IMG/VR virus record: IMGVR_UViG_2778261009_000005 | Span: 1-43,253 of that record | Reading direction: 5' to 3' (one strand) | DNA: 43,253 nucleotides | From: a virus | Taxonomy: Duplodnaviria; Heunggongvirae; Uroviricota; Caudoviricetes | Part shown: positions 28,335-33,948 of the stretch, piece after piece | Position numbering within the stretch: position 1 is the first letter of the stretch | How the letters are laid out: each line of letters begins with the position of its first letter | The notes under the pieces: model-generated | Seen by the model: the letters and a program-made list of their open reading frames with translations, nothing else | Database searches by the model: none | Told to the model about the DNA's origin: nothing | Position numbers and translations under genes: made by a program

Positions 28335-28360
28335 AAAAGCCCGGCGTTCGGGCTTTTCTG
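28335..28360. terminator. Bidirectional intrinsic terminator between convergent operons
   Basis: AAAAGCCCG-gcgtt-CGGGCTTTT flanked by A-rich and T-rich runs. Confidence 0.65.
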
Positions 28361-28379
28361 TTATGACGGGTTCAATTTT

Positions 28380-29378
28380 TTATCCGTTACCGCGCGACGG
28401 TTTCTGCGTGACAAACGTCTCAAGCATCTTTTCCGCAATTGCCGACCAGGTGTGACACTGGACCTTTTCAGCATTTTTCACGCGATCAACGCGAGCAATA
28501 ACCTCATCCCAATCAATCCGCGACTTGATAACCATATGGTTCACCAACTCCAGGCGATCCGGCGGAAGGCAATCGGGCGGCGTTAATATCAACGCTCCAC
28601 ACATTGCCGCCTCAAGAACAGTTAATCCAAGGCTTTCGGGATGCGTAACGATAAAAACGTCACTCTTACGCAATTCAGCTGCAAATTCGGTTGCTGGTAC
28701 CGGCGTCCGTCTGTATGGGGTTACCGATATATTCCCCGGATCAATGGTAATCAATCCGTCATCGGTCAACGTTCTGGCCTCATACGGAACGGCCAGGCGC
28801 TGAAGGTTCATAAGGATACTTAAGGAGTGATCAAACCCACTAACATCAAATGCAGCGTGGTCTACAAAAATACGCAGAACATCGTCTGTTTTGGTTTCCA
28901 GGTGGAACAGCTCCTGATTCGCTGCCCATCCAACATGTTTGTTAAAGCGATTATGACGCTCTAACCGACCGGGATTATCCAGGTACCGCCAGGTATCATC
29001 GCGGACAGTAAAAGTAATATCGACTGGTGCCGAATCCAGCATAGAACCGTCATATACCTGGGCTACCCATCCAGAGAATCGGCGACACAGTTGCATGCCT
29101 ATTTCCCTGGGTACCGTAGTAAAATACCTCAATCCTGGTGCCAAAATGGCCTTCGCAGAACATGCTGTCGCAGCAGTCAACACAGCTTCAACATAATCCT
29201 CGGGGCTTTCGACGCCAGGGGAATATGGACGATGGTATTGCAATGTTACCCCTGCCTCACTAAAGGCGCAGGCCAGGTTATAAGACCACATTTCCGTATA
29301 TGTTTTCACATCACTGATGGCTGCAAATTTTCGCCCAATGATCAGGATGTTCATCGGCTTTTCCTCATTCCATTGCAT
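28380..29378 (-). CDS. Glycosyltransferase family 1 (GT-B)-like protein in the dbn position downstream of ban
   Basis: 332-aa ORF with ESLGLTVLEAAMCGALILTPPD motif. Confidence 0.45.
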   Translation of the reverse strand: MQWNEEKPMNILIIGRKFAAISDVKTYTEMWSYNLACAFSEAGVTLQYHRPYSPGVESPEDYVEAVLTAATACSAKAILAPGLRYFTTVPREIGMQLCRRFSGWVAQVYDGSMLDSAPVDITFTVRDDTWRYLDNPGRLERHNRFNKHVGWAANQELFHLETKTDDVLRIFVDHAAFDVSGFDHSLSILMNLQRLAVPYEARTLTDDGLITIDPGNISVTPYRRTPVPATEFAAELRKSDVFIVTHPESLGLTVLEAAMCGALILTPPDCLPPDRLELVNHMVIKSRIDWDEVIARVDRVKNAEKVQCHTWSAIAEKMLETFVTQKPSRGNG

Positions 29379-30748
29379 TAATAATCCTCTTGCCAGTCAG
29401 CACCGGCATAGTTATCAAACCGTGAGTATTGGCCGTTAAAAGCCAATCTCACCGTGCCAATTGGGCCATTTCGTTGCTTTCCGATAATTACCTCGGCAAT
29501 GCCCTTCATTTCGCTATCCGGGTGATAAACTTCGTCGCGATACAGAAACATAATCAGGTCTGCGTCCTGCTCAATTGCTCCTGATTCACGTAAATCTGAA
29601 TTTACCGGTCGTTTGTCCGCACGCTGTTCAAGCGATCGATTAAGTTGTGACAATGCCACCACCGGTACTTGTAATTCCTTCGCCAACGCCTTCAGTGAGC
29701 GAGAAATCTCGGCAATTTCCAGCGTTCGGTTATCTTGCAGCTCGGGGACGCGCATAAGTTGCAGGTAGTCGATCATAATCATGCTCAAACCACCATTTTC
29801 TTTATAAACACGACGAGCGCGGGAACGTAGCTCTGTCGGCGTCAGGGCGCTTGAGTCATCAATAAAAATATTCTGCTTGTCCAACAGAATACCCATTGCG
29901 CCAGAAACCCGCGCCCAATCATCATCGTTAAGTTGCCCCGTTCTAATACGAGTCTGATCAACGCGTGCAAGAGAAGCCAGTGAGCGCATCATCAGCTGGT
30001 GGCTCGGCATCTCAAGGCTAAAAACCAATACGGGCTTATCGTTACGAACTGCGGCATTTTCGACGAGATTCATCGCAAACGTAGTCTTCCCCATAGATGG
30101 GCGGGCGGCGACAATAATGAGATCGGACGCCTGAAGTCCTGCCGTCTTCTTATTGAGATCGGTAAATCCGGTATCAAGCCCCGTTACACCATCATGCGGT
30201 CGCTGAAACAACTCTTCTATGCGAGATACCGTTGCATCGAGAATGCTGGCGATATCTTTTGGACCACTACCGCTCTTTTGTCGTTTTTCAGCTATTTCAA
30301 AAACGCGGCGCTCGGCCATATCCAGCAATTCATTGCTGCCCCGGCCATCCTGCGCATATCCAGCTTCGGCTATTTCATTTGCGACGGAAATCATTTCACG
30401 AACAACCGCGCGTTCACGAACGATATCCGCATAAGCACAAATATTTGCCGCGCTGGGCGTGTTCTTTGACATCTCCGCAAGGTACGCAAAACCACCGGCG
30501 CGTTCTAATTTACCGTTCTGTTCAAGTGCTTCAGCAAGTGTTATCAAATCAATCGGTTTGCCATGACTTAATAACCTCTCCATCTCACTGAAAATTTCAC
30601 GATGAGCACTGGTATAAAAATCATCAGCAACTATACGATCTGCAACTTCATCCCAGCGGCAGTTATCAAGCATTAAGCCACCAAGTACAGCTTGTTCTGC
30701 ACTAAGGGAATTTGGCATGGATTCAAGAGGGGATGCAGACATTAGCAC
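29378..30748 (-). CDS. ban: Ban, DnaB-family replicative helicase
   Basis: 456-aa ORF with DnaB N-terminal domain and Walker A AARPSMGKT. Confidence 0.9.
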   Translation of the reverse strand: MLMSASPLESMPNSLSAEQAVLGGLMLDNCRWDEVADRIVADDFYTSAHREIFSEMERLLSHGKPIDLITLAEALEQNGKLERAGGFAYLAEMSKNTPSAANICAYADIVRERAVVREMISVANEIAEAGYAQDGRGSNELLDMAERRVFEIAEKRQKSGSGPKDIASILDATVSRIEELFQRPHDGVTGLDTGFTDLNKKTAGLQASDLIIVAARPSMGKTTFAMNLVENAAVRNDKPVLVFSLEMPSHQLMMRSLASLARVDQTRIRTGQLNDDDWARVSGAMGILLDKQNIFIDDSSALTPTELRSRARRVYKENGGLSMIMIDYLQLMRVPELQDNRTLEIAEISRSLKALAKELQVPVVALSQLNRSLEQRADKRPVNSDLRESGAIEQDADLIMFLYRDEVYHPDSEMKGIAEVIIGKQRNGPIGTVRLAFNGQYSRFDNYAGADWQEDY

Positions 30749-31023
30749 TCCATCCAGGCGTGCTGAATGTCAGATATAATCGGCATACTCAAATCACTCC
30801 TAACGATATGAGTCATCACCAGAAAATCAGGATTAATGCGCCGGACTCTTCCCGGCTGTCACACCGAATCGCCAGGATGGTGAATCCGCAGTCCGACGCT
30901 ATGAACGGGGCTTGCACATTCCGGCTACCTGGTTTGTTGCCTGAGCTAGGGGAAAAGGTAACCCCTTTAACGTCACCAGACCGCTAACGACGCATGTGCC
31001 AGACGCCGTGTTACAACCAAATA

Positions 31024-31099
31024 TGGTGGCCCCTACCGGACTTGAACCGGTGACCGTGCGATTATGAGTCGCCTGCTCTAACCACTGAGCTAAAGGGCC
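31024..31099 (-). tRNA. tRNA-Ile2 (anticodon CAU, ileX-like)
   Basis: Minus strand GGCCCTTTAGCTCAGTGGTTAGAGCAGGCGACTCATAATCGCACGGTCACCGGTTCAAGTCCGGTAGGGGCCACCA; cloverleaf with CAU anticodon, close to E. coli ileX. Confidence 0.8.
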
Positions 31100-31253
31100 A
31101 GATTACTGTTAATTCCGCTTACGCTTTTTGCCAGGACCGCGTAAGGCTTTTGCTGCTTGCTCGACCCCATATGCAACAACCAGCAGAAATAAAAATGTCC
31201 ACCAAGGGTTCTTGTCGGCAAACGTCCAAAATTCCATCATGTTATCTATTTGG

Positions 31254-33030: not shown

Positions 33031-33107
33031 CGGTAAGGGTACTTCGTAGGGATTCGAACCCTCTGCCAAGCACGGCGATCTCCGACGTCGCAAAATACCC
33101 TTACCTG
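33031..33107 (-). ncRNA. tRNA-like element (perfect T-arm GGGTTCGAATCCC inside a 10-17 bp terminal stem; no canonical cloverleaf found)
   Basis: Minus strand GGTAAGGGTA...AGAGGGTTCGAATCCCT...TACCCTTACC; lies between tRNA-Ser and tRNA-Thr. Confidence 0.3.
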
Positions 33108-33113
33108 TTGTGT

Positions 33114-33189
33114 TGGTGCCGGTTAACGGACTCGAACCGCTGACATCCTGCTTACAAGGCAGGCGCTCTACCAACTGAGCTAAACCGGC
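33114..33189 (-). tRNA. tRNA-Thr (anticodon UGU)
   Basis: Minus strand GCCGGTTTAGCTCAGTTGGTAGAGCGCCTGCCTTGTAAGCAGGATGTCAGCGGTTCGAGTCCGTTAACCGGCACCA. Confidence 0.8.
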
Positions 33190-33191
33190 AT

Positions 33192-33266
33192 TGGCGATGG
33201 TGGATGGATTCGAACCACCGACCAGTTGGTTAACAGCCAACTGCTCTACCGCTGAGCTACACCATC
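33192..33266 (-). tRNA. tRNA-Asn (anticodon GUU)
   Basis: Minus strand GATGGTGTAGCTCAGCGGTAGAGCAGTTGGCTGTTAACCAACTGGTCGGTGGTTCGAATCCATCCACCATCGCCA. Confidence 0.8.
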
Positions 33267-33920
33267 ACTTGCCGGGTACGTCTCCGGCGAGGGCTTCCAC
33301 CTCCGTATGCTTTTCGGCGCACCGCGCCCTGGCTGCAATTCGGTAACAGGGGATGCACAACCCTGGCTTCCAGCGTGATTAGCGCCTTCAGCATGACGGG
33401 ATATACCCGTAGTAGGACGTTATCTTCAAATTGCTAAAAGCAATTGCTGTTACGCAGAATGAAAAAGGACGTAACAGGTAAGGACGCTGACCAAAAAGAT
33501 GGCCTCTTCTCGCTCATCTGGTTAATCGAACCAGCGCCCTTACCTGTTGTGCCTCCCCGTTCCCTAATACACAGACGGGGACACTCTGCGGTCGATTTTT
33601 TGACGGGGGACGACTCATACCCCGTGGCGTCTGGCTTCTTAGGCCGCTACCATCATCAGATCATCGTTTGCATTTACTTTAATGGTCAGTTTATAAACCG
33701 CCGCAAAGTCGCTAACCATGACGAAAACCCTGAAAAAACGCCCACCCGAAGATGGGCAAACTGGAAGCTCGTAACGCACTTCGGCGTTGCCACTTAGGCG
33801 CATGGTCAACCTGGCAACTCGGTGGTTTGTCTGGGAGGACTAGGCCCAGCCATGCTTACCGCCGCGCCTGTCGCGGCTAACAGCTAAATCGCTCTATAAA
33901 TCACGATTCATTGAGGCGAT

Positions 33921-33948
33921 ATTACACTAATAAATTTATTAGAGCAAT
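33921..33948. promoter_or_regulatory. Two overlapping C1 operator-like sites forming a near-palindrome (Op72-like, ban operon)
   Basis: ATTACACTAATAAATTTATTAGAGCAAT: a 15/17 site and a 17/17 site sharing the central AAATTT. Confidence 0.65.

Follow-up and report, generated by a model that had tools for sequence, protein, structure and literature searches.

The question raised by this locus is whether the long untranslated front of a phage ban operon is a passive leader or a set of genes. The locus occupies positions 28335-33948 of the window, which is the whole stretch of 43,253 nucleotides of viral DNA that was analyzed. The initial annotation had described one long C1-controlled operon with an approximately 650-nt leader rich in hairpins and with four tRNAs serving to supplement codon usage. 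Of this description, the operator, gene order, and terminal terminator are all present, and the annotations of P1 and P7 place both the tRNAs and ban under the control of Oban. As an account of the whole locus, however, it is very improbable in view of the results on its front part given below.

The ban operon and its internal terminator-like elements

The region is a ban transcription unit of the P1 type under C1 repression; this variant has a tRNA-Ser gene and an SPFH module. The operator pair, the listed elements, and the terminator were all found on the minus strand where the initial annotation had put them. A bivalent C1 operator (Oban/Op72ab) overlapping the promoter Pban was located at 33921-33948 (-) by pattern search and by its position in the P1 annotation. 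One C1 site (33932-33948, -) matched ATTGCTCTAATAAATTT with 0 mismatches and the overlapping site (33921-33937, +) with 2 mismatches, and the same search counted 14 C1 sites in the whole window versus 0.28 expected. The operator sites align with the annotated Oban/Op72ab and the P1ban promoter of P1, and the operator overlaps the dmt stop codon. The sequence of Pban shows a -35 element, TTGCTC (33947-33942), and a -10 element, TAATAT (33924-33919), with a predicted transcription start at about 33912.

Three minus-strand ORFs lie at 31109-32298: a 78-amino-acid (aa) membrane protein (32062-32298; phrog_1130), an SPFH/Band_7 lipoprotein (31254-32081; 106.9 bits, N-terminal ...LTGC), and a 43-aa TciC-like membrane peptide (31109-31240). 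At the DNA level, lambdoid, Stx, and phiP27 phages have genes 88-89% identical to the SPFH gene. The three ORFs are followed on the same strand by ban, encoding a DnaB-type helicase (29378-30748; Pfam DnaB_C, 359 bits; DnaB, 121 bits; P1 annotation), and by dbn (28380-29378; phrog_2518; P1 annotation), which is weakly GT1-like (23.9 bits, below the cut-off). The small membrane protein, the SPFH lipoprotein, ban, and the GT-like gene are present as the initial annotation had them, but the name plp for the SPFH gene was a mislabel; plp and upl of P1 are opposite-strand ORFs of the Thr-Ser spacer and look spurious. The predicted bidirectional terminator was found as an 11-bp hairpin, GAAAAGCCCGG...CCGGGCUUUUC, at 28338-28362, between dbn and a converging baseplate gene, and it folds on both strands (-17.6 kcal/mol, z -4.8; -18.1 kcal/mol, z -2.6).

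Gene order, operator, and terminal terminator are consistent with one leftward unit under C1 control that is homologous to the P1 ban operon. Uninterrupted transcription of this unit is another matter. An intrinsic-terminator-like hairpin, UGCCCAUCUUCGGGUGGGCG followed by UUUUUU, was identified at 33733-33758 (-) by a terminator scan, by its fold, and from the P1 annotation. The hairpin part (33758-33739, then U6) scored as strong in the scan, lies about 155 nt past the predicted transcription start, and forms the core of the P1 "dicF-like region." That label for part of the leader is unsupported, as Rfam gave no DicF match at E<=10. A second element follows cassette D (32555-32455, -) within 32322-32555 (-), a segment defined by Rfam, folds, and an arm match. 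It is an STnc100/PasD-like RNA (32452-32332, -; Rfam STnc100, 39.4 bits versus a gathering score of 47), the closing stem and U tract of which lie directly 5' of the Shine-Dalgarno sequence of the 78-aa ORF. Its 3' end resembles a terminator just before that ORF. Because of these two terminator-like elements, an unbroken read-through from Pban to ban is not self-evident.

An array of small RNA genes and long-stem cassettes

The leader (about 33912 to 33267, -; approximately 650 nt) contains no credible ORF, and its fold is more stable than that of shuffled sequences (z -3.9), as is the Thr-Ser spacer (z -5.3). The claim of an ORF-poor, hairpin-rich leader was thus borne out, but the leader is not a mere leader: it contains, in order, the terminator-like hairpin, a tmRNA-derived RNA, and a long-stem cassette. 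These are flanked by a P1-type-specific 5' leader (33760-33912, -), with no Rfam match, and by a structured spacer between cassette A and tRNA-Asn (33267-33472, -) that folds and has neither an ORF nor an Rfam match. Far from being passive, the 1.6-kb noncoding front (about 33912-32300) forms a mobile array in which small RNA genes follow one another in the order tmRNA-derived RNA, tRNA-Asn, tRNA-Thr, tRNA-Ser, and STnc100-like RNA, with long-stem hairpins between them. Rfam scans of the region found three of the tRNAs, the subthreshold STnc100 match, and a match to tmRNA_permuted.

Three of the tRNA genes were called by ARAGORN and passed the Rfam tRNA model at 67-75 bits: tRNA-Asn(GUU) (33192-33266, -; ARAGORN Asn(GTT), 73.9 bits), tRNA-Thr(UGU) (33114-33189, -; Thr(TGT), 74.9 bits), and a tRNA of the Ile2 type with anticodon CAU (31024-31099, -; Met/Ile2(CAT)). 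The fourth, a noncanonical tRNA-Ser(UGA) (32562-32648, -), was called by ARAGORN as Ser(TGA) but failed the Rfam tRNA threshold, with a best match to tRNA-Sec at 43.1 bits versus a gathering score of 47, so that only one predictor accepts the earlier call. The acceptor stem of the gene has 7 bp, position 73 is a G (G73), CCA is encoded, the variable arm is long, and the D-arm is compact. The D-stem of the window allele carries a C-U mismatch, whereas most of the 21 homologous copies have GAGC/GCUC. A role for these tRNAs in supplementing codon usage fits poorly with the Thr(UGU) and Asn(GUU) set, which matches the known targets of an anticodon nuclease.

Cassette A (33473-33551, -; fold z -6.2), identified from repeats and a cassette census, has a variable interior closed off by a stem of 17 bp (AACAGGUAAGGGCGCUG/CAGCGUCCUUACCUGUU). 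Cassette B (33026-33112, -), previously described as a tRNA-like element, is a stem-closed hairpin of 92 nt (z -4.9), in the closing stem of which a bulged A lies between 6 bp and 11 bp. Its interior does hold a perfect GGGUUCGAAUCCC T-arm, but no predictor called it a tRNA. Cassette C' (32790-32889, -; z -7.0), found as an inverted repeat, has a near-perfect 23-bp stem (CACUACAACGUUGAGAACACUGG/CCAGUGUUCUCAACGUUGUGGUG) and is homologous to A and B in its design, with a compensated arm sequence. Two small modules at 32651-32786 (-), a hairpin UCGCAGGCUGAUGCGA (32786-32771) and GCCGGAGAUUCAGUACCGGCCACCACAAC (32681-32653), are common to unrelated phages (blastn-short matches to L130 and L011).

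Such modularity could also arise at the DNA level, if the inverted repeats (CACAACAGGTAAGRG.../...CYCTTACCGTTGTG), and perhaps the ssrA-like repeat as well, were recombination linkers or miniature mobile elements that move RNA-gene modules from phage to phage and have no RNA function of their own. Module boundaries do fall on repeats (homology with D6-type loci starts at 33760, and cassettes B and C are interchangeable or occur together), some relatives have an inserted tRNA-Tyr or tRNA-Arg, and different interiors lie between the same arms in unrelated phages. However, the arms differ while pairing is kept (GGUAAGGG/CCCUUACC, GUUGAGAAC/GUUCUCAAC, and GUGAGAGUA/UACUCUCUC in phiEa2809), which indicates selection on the folded strand. 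Recombination may account for the cassettes, but it does not account for the tag frame or the host-directed arm described below, and we regard it as a poor explanation of the locus.

A small RNA derived from ssrA

The RNA at 33730-33554 (-), a member of a previously undescribed family with its origin in enterobacterial ssrA, comprises four parts, namely, an antisense arm, a spacer, a resume codon with a tag frame, and a stop-codon stem with a hairpin and a pseudoknot. The query 33729-33553 matched 196 phage records at 60-99% identity, including Ackermannviridae, Schitoviridae, Drexlerviridae, lambdoid, and P1-like phages. In the 45 records listed, the annotation under the match comprised only two "hypothetical protein" calls and the P1 "dicF-like region," and the element, present in 660 of 5426 complete E. 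coli genomes, was annotated as RNA in none of them. The family sample contained 143 copies and was gathered partly with a pattern fixing UAAAUGCAAACGA. That unrelated phage families keep this part of the leader, its structure covarying and its tag frame conserved, argues against the plain leader of the initial annotation, as do the internal terminator-like elements.

The 39-nt anti-tmRNA arm, GGGUUUUCGUCAUGGUUAGCGACUUUGCGGCGGUUUAUA (33692-33730, -), is homologous, as the reverse complement, to nt 66-106 of E. coli ssrA; these span the 3' half of PK1, the A-rich stretch before the resume codon, the resume codon itself, and codons 1-5. In Smith-Waterman alignments with the ssrA reverse complement, the arm landed at the same place, nt 68-105 of ssrA, in every representative tested, and its score was reached by 0-3 of 500 shuffles in eight of nine representatives and by 25 of 500 for L128. 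Pairing was computed with an ssrA sequence confirmed on a real genome. The predicted duplex of the window arm with ssrA was -38.9 kcal/mol, and the mean for arms with ssrA nt 62-110 was -35.1 kcal/mol (z -5 to -10 in most). Only this region-restricted test was strong; RNAduplex with the whole 363-nt tmRNA was nondiscriminating (z -1 to -3). The mean duplex of the arm with the element's own homologous stretch was -16.7 kcal/mol, and pairing with host ssrA was predicted to be stronger than with the own copy in 45 of 45 representatives (about twofold). Core arm columns are almost invariant, with variants facing a host G or U being wobble-keeping transitions, and the 40-nt ssrA target is identical in Escherichia, Klebsiella, Citrobacter, Enterobacter, Kluyvera, and Kosakonia. 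The element has the look of an inverted ssrA duplication, and from such an origin part of the complementarity would be inherited rather than selected, and the case for a host-directed arm comes from the arm having stayed host-like while the sense copy diverged.

The tmRNA-like messenger part (33639-33691, -) was recognized from its sequence and by Rfam tmRNA_permuted (25.7 bits over UAAAUGCAAACGAU...GUAGCGGCCUAA, the resume region and the tag end). It begins with a 20-nt spacer (33691-33672, -) ending in UAAAU, which together with the last 2 arm bases gives a 22-nt stretch sharing about half of its bases with ssrA nt 68-89. The tag frame (33671-33642), GCA AAC GAU GAU CUG AUG AUG GUA GCG GCC (ANDDLMMVAA), opens with the resume codon GCA (33671-33669) and is closed by the stop codon UAA (33641-33639, -). 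Across the family, 31 nucleotide versions encode 17 tag peptides, all of 10 codons without indels, all starting with GCA and ending in AA or VA (one in AP) before the stop; ANDDVVLMAA alone has six distinct nucleotide versions. Most members have an in-frame UAG 8 codons upstream of the tag, with no intervening start codon. Judged by their ends (...AA or ...VA), the phage tags still look like ClpXP degrons, a point against an obvious gain from swapping the tag. Downstream, at 33554-33625 (-), covariation defines a post-stop hairpin, ACGGGG...CCCCGU (33625-33603), and an H-type pseudoknot (33589-33554) with stems GCAGA/UCUGU (S1) and UCCCCG/CGGGGA (S2). Over the stop stem, hairpin, and pseudoknot of 45 representatives, 92% of cells were paired versus 37-52% with partners slid, both sides had changed in 13 of 18 pairs, and the observed values were reached by 0 of 500 shuffles.

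The tag frame, stop-codon stem, and pseudoknot are tmRNA features, and phage-encoded tmRNAs are known in mycobacteriophages and Bacillus phage G (PMC4131195). The RNA might thus be an autonomous tmRNA, two-piece or permuted, that is charged and rescues ribosomes alone, its unrecognized tRNA-like domain being a T-arm cassette or an adjacent tRNA-like gene. Some cassettes indeed have canonical T-loops (type B of the window; interiors in L130, L132, L166, and L171), and in N4-like phages the element is followed by a tRNA-like gene and a minihelix with an acceptor stem, T-arm, and ACCA. However, a tRNA-like domain was looked for in the tmRNA-derived RNA and not found. ARAGORN at default settings gave no tmRNA in the window or in L127-L130, and relaxed settings gave arbitrary domains alongside obvious false positives. 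A scan for a T-arm with a 7-nt acceptor strand and NCCA and a distant 5' partner gave nothing family-wide and no G3:U70. Cassette interiors are unconserved, many being without a T-arm (type C, L127). In 47-kb phages a TTGACA-17-TAGATT promoter lies about 12 nt before the arm, indicating that the RNA starts there and that an acceptor strand would have no space on its 5' side. An autonomous tmRNA would also leave the lasting complementarity of the arm to host ssrA unexplained, and we consider it unlikely.

We gave a similarly low rating to a cis-acting device, in which alternative leader structures would set the transcription or processing that reaches the tRNAs and ban and the tag frame would be an ssrA relic. 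P1-like and lambdoid contexts do place the element between a promoter or terminator and downstream genes. RNAalifold pairs the UGCG of the arm with the element's own UGCA (resume codon) and the arm GCG with a CGC in the pseudoknot region, and about 11 bp can be read between the window arm and its own tag start. However, the pairs predicted by RNAalifold never vary and so lack covariation support, and the own-copy duplex is the weak one in every representative compared. A relic would not remain exactly 10 codons long and keep its stop and its Ala-Ala or Val-Ala end across 31 nucleotide versions, synonymous changes included, and the element recurs in very different contexts, including an independent promoter-to-terminator unit.

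Candidate function and comparison with related phages

The reading that we favor, with a probability of roughly 0.55, is that of a phage RNA directed at host tmRNA, with which it would pair so as to block trans-translation or re-template it. When C1 is lifted, the RNA would be made from Pban, which in P1-type phages needs read-through of the leader hairpin since the strong terminator ends just 2 nt before the arm, and it would be excised at cassette A, probably by RNase III. The arm would then pair with host tmRNA over the 3' strand of PK1, the A-rich stretch that sets the frame, and the initial codons, masking the host tag template and so interfering with trans-translation. In vitro, an oligonucleotide complementary to tmRNA suppresses the release of nascent chains from stalled ribosomes (PMC3384345). 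The phage tag frame is under selection at the peptide level, and for this reason the RNA probably, though less certainly, also offers its own template to ribosomes in rescue via the tRNA-like domain of host tmRNA, in which case the host tag would be replaced by a phage-specified one. The pairing would, however, unfold PK1 of tmRNA, which counts against the use of a template provided in trans. The adjoining tRNAs probably substitute for host tRNAs cut by anticodon nucleases, and the island as a whole would then shield phage translation. Half mirror and half copy of host tmRNA, the RNA suggests that the phages sharing it tamper with the host's tagging of unfinished proteins.

Shared parts of the ban operon are 96-97% identical in nucleotide sequence to P1, P7, and RCS47, and 32300-33948 of the window is 100% identical to E. 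coli plasmid AP026456.1. The tRNA-Ser(UGA) is absent from P1, in line with the initial annotation, but it is not new, since P7 has it unannotated and D6 has it annotated. Where P1 has tciA-tciB, the window has the SPFH gene and the 78-aa gene, and P1 trnI and the window tRNA-Ile2 are identical at 75 of 76 nt. Homology with D6-type loci starts exactly at 33760, so that the 5' leader is not common to D6-type and other phages. P7-type phages carry cassette C at the site of cassette B of the window, and RCS47 has both. The operon layout itself is already known from P1; the leader RNA is the new part.

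A tmRNA-derived RNA in the ban operon leader

The leader of the ban operon was described in the initial annotation as rich in hairpins and lacking a convincing ORF. Both parts of this description held, as no credible ORF was found and the leader folded much better than shuffled sequences (z = -3.9), as did the Thr-Ser spacer (z = -5.3). A sensitive search using the leader beyond its terminator (33760-33267) as the query matched 196 phage records. Beyond the P1-like phages, window positions 33729-33553 showed 70 to 88% identity with sequences in Ackermannviridae (Erwinia phiEa2809 and Klebsiella and Salmonella Vi1-like phages), N4-like Schitoviridae (PBM-2), Drexlerviridae (Cronobacter CS01) and others, and 47-kb Salmonella and Escherichia phages (STGO-35-1, C1, and DS8). 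The corresponding RNA on the minus strand (33730-33554) is referred to here as the element. It was present in 660 of 5426 complete E. coli genomes (~12%), at 582 places on plasmids and 140 on chromosomes, and no RNA annotation of it was found in these genomes. The element was also unannotated in P1, P7, and D6, and annotation under it was absent in nearly all phage records among the matches listed. Searches of freely readable full-text papers for its tags, phage tmRNA-like RNAs, or phage anti-tmRNA RNAs returned no description of it.

The element contains an internal frame without a start codon that opens with a resume codon and ends in hydrophobic or alanine residues and a stop codon. In the window, this tag frame (33671-33639) reads ...AAAGUAAAU GCA AAC GAU GAU CUG AUG AUG GUA GCG GCC UAA and encodes ANDDLMMVAA; the tag of E. 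coli tmRNA is ANDENYALAA. The tags of other phages included ANDDVVLMAA, ANDEQFLAVA, ANDDLMLMAA, ANEEMYLAVA, and ANDNEFKVAA. Among 122 unique copies, 31 nucleotide versions encoded 17 peptides, all with exactly ten codons plus a stop and with zero indels; ANDDVVLMAA arose from six nucleotide versions, and the terminal Ala-Ala was encoded by five codon pairs. Part of the family sample was gathered with a pattern fixing UAAAUGCAAACGA, and the BLAST-based census was independent of this pattern. Most members had an in-frame UAG eight codons upstream of the tag and no start codon, which sets the tag frame apart from a regular ORF. For the window, a reading as a conventional 26-aa ORF (MVSDF...ANDDLMMVAA) was rejected, with other members showing the in-frame UAG, the missing start codon, and frame shifts upstream. 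The Rfam model tmRNA_permuted aligned to exactly the tag stretch in a sub-region scan (E = 0.0015), and no Rfam tmRNA model reached its threshold (25.7 against 47 bits for tmRNA_permuted and 10 to 17 against 84 bits for beta_tmRNA).

The fold was analyzed with 45 aligned representatives, none more than 93% identical to another. Three structures at and after the frame end were supported: the stop codon is displayed on a stem, and a hairpin and an H-type pseudoknot come next. The cells were paired in 92% of cases compared with 37 to 52% for slid partners, changes on both sides occurred in 13 of 18 pairs, and none of 500 shuffles attained the observed covariation values. The position of PK1 is taken by an arm antisense to host ssrA, and no equivalents of PK3 and PK4 were found in the element.

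One rival explanation is an autonomous tmRNA with an unrecognized tRNA-like domain. The tag frame and the structures after it resemble those of a tmRNA; the tRNA-like domain itself (acceptor stem with G3:U70, T-arm, and 3' ACCA) was not found. Default ARAGORN called a tmRNA neither in the window nor in any of four diverse relatives (L127-L130). At thresholds of 70 to 80%, it returned the true tag but with arbitrary tRNA-like domains and alongside obvious false tmRNAs, and a hidden canonical tmRNA was rejected. When T-arms, 7-nt acceptor strands, and NCCA were sought together with a distant partner, nothing common to the family emerged, only ordinary tRNAs and two lineage-specific minihelices. 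Complementary acceptor strands of a two-piece (permuted) tmRNA were looked for across the family, and none were found. The sequence upstream of the element differs between phages: the P1 and D6 types have a terminator hairpin there, the 47-kb phages have a promoter, and others have a variable cassette. In the 47-kb phages, the promoter (TTGACA-17-TAGATT) is located ~12 nt before the conserved block; therefore, the RNA is expected to start there, leaving no room for a 5' acceptor strand. In an exhaustive published survey, mycobacteriophages and Bacillus phage G were the only phages with ssrA (PMC4131195).

In the N4-like phages (PBM-2, L128, and L187), a tRNA-like gene directly follows the element (positions 871-950 in L128). 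It is annotated as tRNA-Cys, was not called by ARAGORN, and has U3-G70 in its acceptor stem. It is followed by a minihelix composed of a 7-bp acceptor stem, a T-arm, and ACCA (~955-1025 in L128). The gene and the minihelix are candidate partner tRNA-like domains in that lineage.

Complementarity between the element and host tmRNA

The arm of the element (33730-33692, minus strand), GGGUUUUCGUCAUGGUUAGCGACUUUGCGGCGGUUUAUA, which includes the stretch GUUUUCGU, is the reverse complement of host ssrA. Within it, GUUUUCGUC complements ssrA GACGAAAAC (codons 3-5), GCGACU complements AGUCGC (the resume codon and preceding bases), and UUGCGG and UUUUUA-like segments complement CCGCAA and UAAAAA (the 3' side of PK1). 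The ssrA sequence used was checked over nt 56-115 and was identical to that of a RefSeq genome. Local alignment placed every representative on the same ssrA interval, nt 68-105. The alignment score was attained by 0 to 3 of 500 shuffles for eight of nine representatives and by 25 of 500 for PBM-2 (L128), in which only a 10-nt core aligned. Against the sense strand of ssrA, the arm gave background scores. The 40-nt target was exactly conserved in Escherichia, Klebsiella, Citrobacter, Enterobacter, Kluyvera, Kosakonia, and other genera.

The predicted duplex of the window arm with ssrA nt 66-106 had an energy of -38.9 kcal/mol. The mean of the predicted duplexes was -35.1 kcal/mol with host tmRNA (z mostly -5 to -10) versus -16.7 kcal/mol with the element's own homologous stretch, and the host duplex was stronger in 45 of 45 representatives. 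RNAduplex of the arm with the whole 363-nt tmRNA gave z values of -1 to -3, where long loops inflate the scores of the shuffled controls; local alignment and the region-restricted duplex test were used instead. As expected of the proposed new class of trans-acting antisense RNAs against host tmRNA, the complementarity was extended, conserved in the family at one ssrA site, and above self-pairing.

In ungapped columns, the arm agreed with the host reverse complement at 29 of 32 positions in the window and at 32 of 33 in a relative (L011). The core arm columns were nearly invariant, and substitutions opposite host G or U were transitions preserving wobble pairing. Drift is visible in the sense copy: by eye, the window shares with ssrA nt 68-89 only 11 of the 22 nt ahead of its resume codon, and 11 of its first 16 tag nucleotides agree with ssrA. 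Because the arm is a reverse complement of ssrA and the tag region is a sense copy, the whole element appears to be an inverted duplication of the ssrA messenger region. The stronger pairing with the host than with itself, the drift of the sense copy, and the invariant or wobble-keeping arm columns argue for selected complementarity to the host, beyond mere inheritance. As judged from its sequence, the element is a new tmRNA-derived antisense and tag RNA, for which Rfam scans of the leader returned no family at threshold.

Beyond the observed architecture, conservation, covariation, frame integrity, and host-directed complementarity, we consider it slightly favored, at a probability of roughly 55%, that the element acts by pairing with host tmRNA. 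The RNA would be made once C1 repression is lifted and the polymerase passes the leader hairpin, and it would be released at cassette A, the hairpin that follows it. It would then pair with host tmRNA nt 66-106 and mask the frame-setting stretch and the first codons. Synthetic anti-tmRNA oligonucleotides mask tmRNA likewise in vitro (PMC3384345). In addition, the phage frame has stayed translatable and may therefore act as a replacement template for ribosomes holding the host alanyl tRNA-like domain.

A complete hijack of the tag template, in which the arm docks on tmRNA nt 66-106, the host template is silenced, and ribosomes translate the phage tag (ANDDLMMVAA and its variants), is a tentative and rather unlikely extension. 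The phage resume codon, 22 nt from the docking point, would be set where that of the host would be. Rescue would enter through the host alanyl tRNA-like domain and SmpB, and the phage-encoded tag would then be translated. In effect, the host would supply the acceptor piece and the virus the coding piece of a natural tmRNA assembled in trans. If so, phages would rewrite the fate of proteins from stalled ribosomes, for example, under tRNA-cleaving defenses that the neighboring phage tRNAs also counter.

A cis-acting leader device and a plain leader are further rival readings. The leader contains a textbook intrinsic terminator (33758-33733; 8 bp and U6), one of two internal terminator-like elements between Pban and ban. 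The same RNA also occurs in a self-contained unit of a 47-kb Salmonella phage, consisting of a promoter, the tmRNA-like RNA, a cassette, small hairpins, tRNA(CAT), and a terminator, and its arm is matched to a host sequence.

Should it pair with tmRNA, the element would rank as the first RNA found in nature to antagonize or reprogram trans-translation. Pairing would open a direct way into the long-standing question of what makes several phages dependent on, or sensitive to, the tmRNA system and would link ribosome rescue to tRNA-targeting immunity and phage-borne replacement tRNAs. The element could also provide a natural scaffold for the control of tagging in cells. P1 has been a model phage for decades and its operon frame has been known for about twenty years, yet the element was unannotated there; it represents a new RNA family for annotation pipelines.

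Operon frame, tRNAs, and modular island

The operon parts proposed initially (operator, tRNAs, small membrane protein, SPFH lipoprotein, ban, a GT-like gene, and terminator) were all present. The E. coli plasmid AP026456.1 was 100% identical over window positions 32300-33948, and P1, P7, RCS47, SJ46, and several "Punavirus" records showed 96 to 97% identity to the operon region over the parts in common. The P1 record has the same order: dmt, the divalent C1 operator Oban (formerly Op72ab) with P1ban, a "dicF-like region," trnA (Asn), trnT (Thr), upl and plp on the other strand, tciA-C, trnI (Ile2), ban, dbn, and baseplate genes. In the window, the C1 operator sites are located at 33932-33948 on the minus strand (a perfect ATTGCTCTAATAAATTT) and at 33921-33937 on the plus strand (two mismatches); a pattern search found 14 C1 sites in the window against 0.28 expected. 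The arrangement is that of the P1 type (Punavirus), with a bivalent C1 operator at the dmt end followed leftward by tRNAs, ban, and dbn. The hairpin at the far end (28338-28362) folds on both strands, as a bidirectional terminator would. This operon frame has been described before. Among the genes of this region, the P1vir RNA-seq paper mentioned only upl and tciB. The DicF likeness implied by the label in the P1 record was rejected, as two scans of the leader gave no Rfam DicF match at E ≤ 10. A stretch of ~200 nt from cassette A to tRNA-Asn (33267-33472, minus strand) folds strongly and showed no ORF, no Rfam match, and no obvious relatives beyond P1- and D6-type phages.

Ban is a DnaB-type helicase, and the last gene of the operon is weakly GT1-like. 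The minus-strand 78-aa ORF was assigned by a protein family search to a phage membrane protein family. The minus-strand 275-aa ORF passed the Band_7 cutoff (PF01145; 106.9 against 23.6 bits), matched phrog_200 ("lipoprotein"), and has a signal peptide with a lipobox (N terminus, MKKTLISAAIIFGSLCLTGC), as expected of an SPFH/Band 7 lipoprotein. This gene showed 88 to 89% DNA identity to genes of lambdoid, Stx, phiP27, and P88 phages. Upstream of it, directly before the 78-aa ORF, lies an STnc100/PasD-like RNA (32332-32452, minus strand) ending in a stem and U tract. It matched Rfam RF02076 below the gathering threshold (39.4 against 47 bits; E = 2.4e-6) over model positions 31-147, a span that takes in the terminal stem and U tract. 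STnc100/PasD have been described as sRNAs of prophages (bioRxiv 10.64898/2026.05.13.724894). The STnc100-like RNA, the 78-aa gene, and the SPFH gene suggest a whole module imported from lambdoid phages. A 43-aa ORF (MMEFWTFADKNPWW...; 31109-31240, minus strand) lies between the SPFH gene and tRNA-Ile2 at the site of P1 tciC, and its N terminus resembles that of TciC (MGFWDFADKHP...).

The name plp, initially given to the SPFH gene, was misplaced. P1 plp (5354-5731 of the P1 record) and upl (5162-5353) are ORFs on the opposite strand of the Thr-Ser spacer, and the window homologue of plp lies at 32736-33143 (plus strand). Annotated as a "putative lipoprotein" in P1, plp is antisense to RNA cassettes and overlaps tRNA-Thr. 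As a real lipoprotein gene it was rejected: substitutions were spread evenly over the codon positions (21/17/27), two relatives had in-frame stops and one had a frameshift, the C terminus changed with each RNA cassette swap, and no Pfam or PHROG match was found. Therefore, plp is probably not a gene. The element would explain probably spurious ORF calls in P1-like genomes, such as plp/upl and various "hypothetical proteins."

Four tRNA genes had been proposed. ARAGORN called all four on the minus strand, namely, tRNA-Asn(GTT) (33192-33266), tRNA-Thr(TGT) (33114-33189), tRNA-Ser(TGA) (32562-32648), and a tRNA-Met(CAT) call of the Ile2 type (31024-31099), whereas Rfam passed three (67 to 75 bits) and left the Ser gene below threshold. 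The best Rfam match of the Ser gene was tRNA-Sec (43.1 bits against a threshold of 47), with the Rfam tRNA model also below threshold. In the sequence of the gene, G73 and CCA can be seen along with an acceptor stem, and the variable arm comprises 6 bp capped by a GCAA loop. Its D-arm is compact and atypical, with a C-U mismatch in the D-stem of this allele, where most of 21 copies have GAGC/GCUC. The D6 annotators remarked that tRNAscan-SE assigned no amino acid to it. The Ser gene is an addition to the three tRNAs of P1, as claimed, but it is a known variant and not new, because ARAGORN finds copies at the same place in P7 and D6. The P7 copy (5241-5327 of the P7 record) is unannotated, and in the D6 record the strands of the tRNAs are apparently opposite to the ARAGORN calls.

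The CAT tRNA was identical at 75 of 76 nt to P1 trnI, for which the P1 record gives tRNA-Ile2 and 89% identity to ileX; the window copy matches ileX at 69 of 76 nt. With its CAU anticodon on an ileX-like rather than a tRNA-Met body, it reads as a tRNA-Ile2 of the ileX type, in which the CAU would be modified with lysidine. In the window, tRNA-Thr(UGU) reads U36-A-A-G-C and tRNA-Asn(GUU) reads U36-A-A-C-C, both differing at position 39. Because both phage tRNAs (33114-33266, minus strand) replace U39 of the U36-A-A-U-C motif, the replacements suggest nuclease-resistant replacement tRNAs, not codon supplementation. Phage T5 escapes through variant tRNAs (PMC12409363). Together, nuclease-resistant tRNAs and altered rescue of stalled ribosomes may make the island, the noncoding array of RNA genes and hairpins, a protector of translation.

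CAT, Thr(TGT), Asn(GTT), and Arg(TCT) were the commonest tRNAs across the island family. In two relatives (Ro157c2YLVW, L003, and an IMG/VR contig, L008), tRNA-Tyr(GTA) was inserted between Asn and Thr, or tRNA-Arg(TCT) stood in place of Asn. The tRNA content of the island was fluid in these relatives, and the tmRNA-derived RNA was kept.

The RNA genes are separated by long-stem hairpin cassettes on the minus strand. The element is followed by cassette A (33551-33473), a hairpin with a 17-bp stem starting CACAACAGGUAAGGG. The same 15-mer heads cassette B (33112-33026), which follows tRNA-Thr and had been described as a tRNA-like element. Cassette C' (32889-32790) has a 23-bp stem, and cassette D (32555-32455) has the homologous arm design. 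The arms are homologous in design with compensated sequences (GGUAAGGG/CCCUUACC, GUUGAGAAC/GUUCUCAAC, and GUUAAGAGUA/UGCUCUUACC), and the interiors are unrelated; the equivalent stem of phiEa2809 is ACAUAACUGUGAGAGUA/UACUCUCUCAGUUAUGU. In relatives, cassette B was replaced or joined by a third type (C), with tRNA-Tyr or tRNA-Arg between cassettes.

Because stems of 17 to 23 bp suit RNase III, the cassettes may function as processing punctuation. A minor rival is that they are DNA-level recombination linkers. D6-type homology starts exactly at 33760, a lambdoid contig carries the same island between a terminator and a holin gene, and the small modules UCGCAGGCUGAUGCGA and GCCGGAGAUUCAGUACCGGCCACCACAAC also recur. 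The form of the cassettes (AAC...GTT ends, a bulged base, and variable centers) also brought to mind tRNA pseudogenes, integron attC-like sites, and CRISPR-like repeats. These identities were set aside: no integron integrase context is present, and apart from the type B T-arm, the interiors do not resemble tRNAs.

Two short modules of the minus strand (32651-32683 and 32771-32786) were found with >92% identity in 47-kb and lambdoid phages that are unrelated, in every case close to cassette arms and tRNAs. One is a CCGG-stem hairpin with CCACCACAAC after it, and the other is UCGCAGGCUGAUGCGA. In one contig, a canonical T-arm followed by ACCACAAC stood in place of the CCGG-stem hairpin module.

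Comparison with known systems

The window shares with the P1/P7 ban operon the operator, promoter position, tRNA-Asn, tRNA-Thr, tRNA-Ile2, ban, dbn, and the flanking dmt and baseplate genes. It differs from P1 in the presence of tRNA-Ser, as in P7 and D6, and in carrying the 78-aa membrane gene and the SPFH lipoprotein gene where P1 has tciA and tciB. P1 itself also carries the tmRNA-derived RNA.

The tRNA cluster of phage T4 contains stable RNAs ("species 1 and 2"), and rRNA operons contain RNase III stems. In both, as in the island, several small stable RNAs and tRNAs per transcript are parted by processing structures. In contrast, the predicted processing separators of the island are a repeated family of 17- to 23-bp stems with conserved arms and variable interiors, found across unrelated phage families.

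DicF, AgvB/AsxR, and STnc100/PasD are likewise short phage-borne RNAs in lambdoid or P1-like noncoding islands that base pair with host RNA, as proposed for the element. However, the proposed target of the element is tmRNA and not an mRNA or sRNA, the complementarity extends over ~30 bp rather than a short seed, and no sRNA family was matched.

The element resembles tmRNA (SsrA, including the two-piece or permuted forms and those of Bxz1-group mycobacteriophages and Bacillus phage G) in the GCA resume codon after an A-rich ...UAAAU, the 10-codon tag AN(D/E)...(A/V)A as in E. coli, the partial match to an Rfam tmRNA model, and the placement of the stop codon in a small stem ahead of a hairpin and an H-type pseudoknot. 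Unlike tmRNA, it has no tRNA-like domain (no G3:U70 acceptor stem and no T-arm followed by ACCA) and would therefore not be chargeable by itself. It also carries an arm antisense to the host PK1/resume region instead of PK1, is only ~180 nt long, falls below every Rfam tmRNA threshold, and is missed by default ARAGORN.

Mycobacteriophage DS6A carries a "TLD-only" tmRNA fragment, for which interference with trans-translation in the host has been suggested (Hudson, Lau and Williams 2014, PMC4131195). Both are cases of a phage with one tmRNA half only; DS6A retains the tRNA-like half, which is thought to titrate SmpB, whereas the element retains the messenger half together with an antisense arm. 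Synthetic anti-ssrA oligonucleotides used in cell-free translation and ribosome display (PMC3384345) are likewise complementary to the tag-template region of E. coli tmRNA and are expected to block tagging and release at stalled ribosomes, as proposed for the element. These oligonucleotides are man-made DNA, whereas the element is a natural structured RNA with interrupted complementarity extending into PK1 and a tag template of its own.
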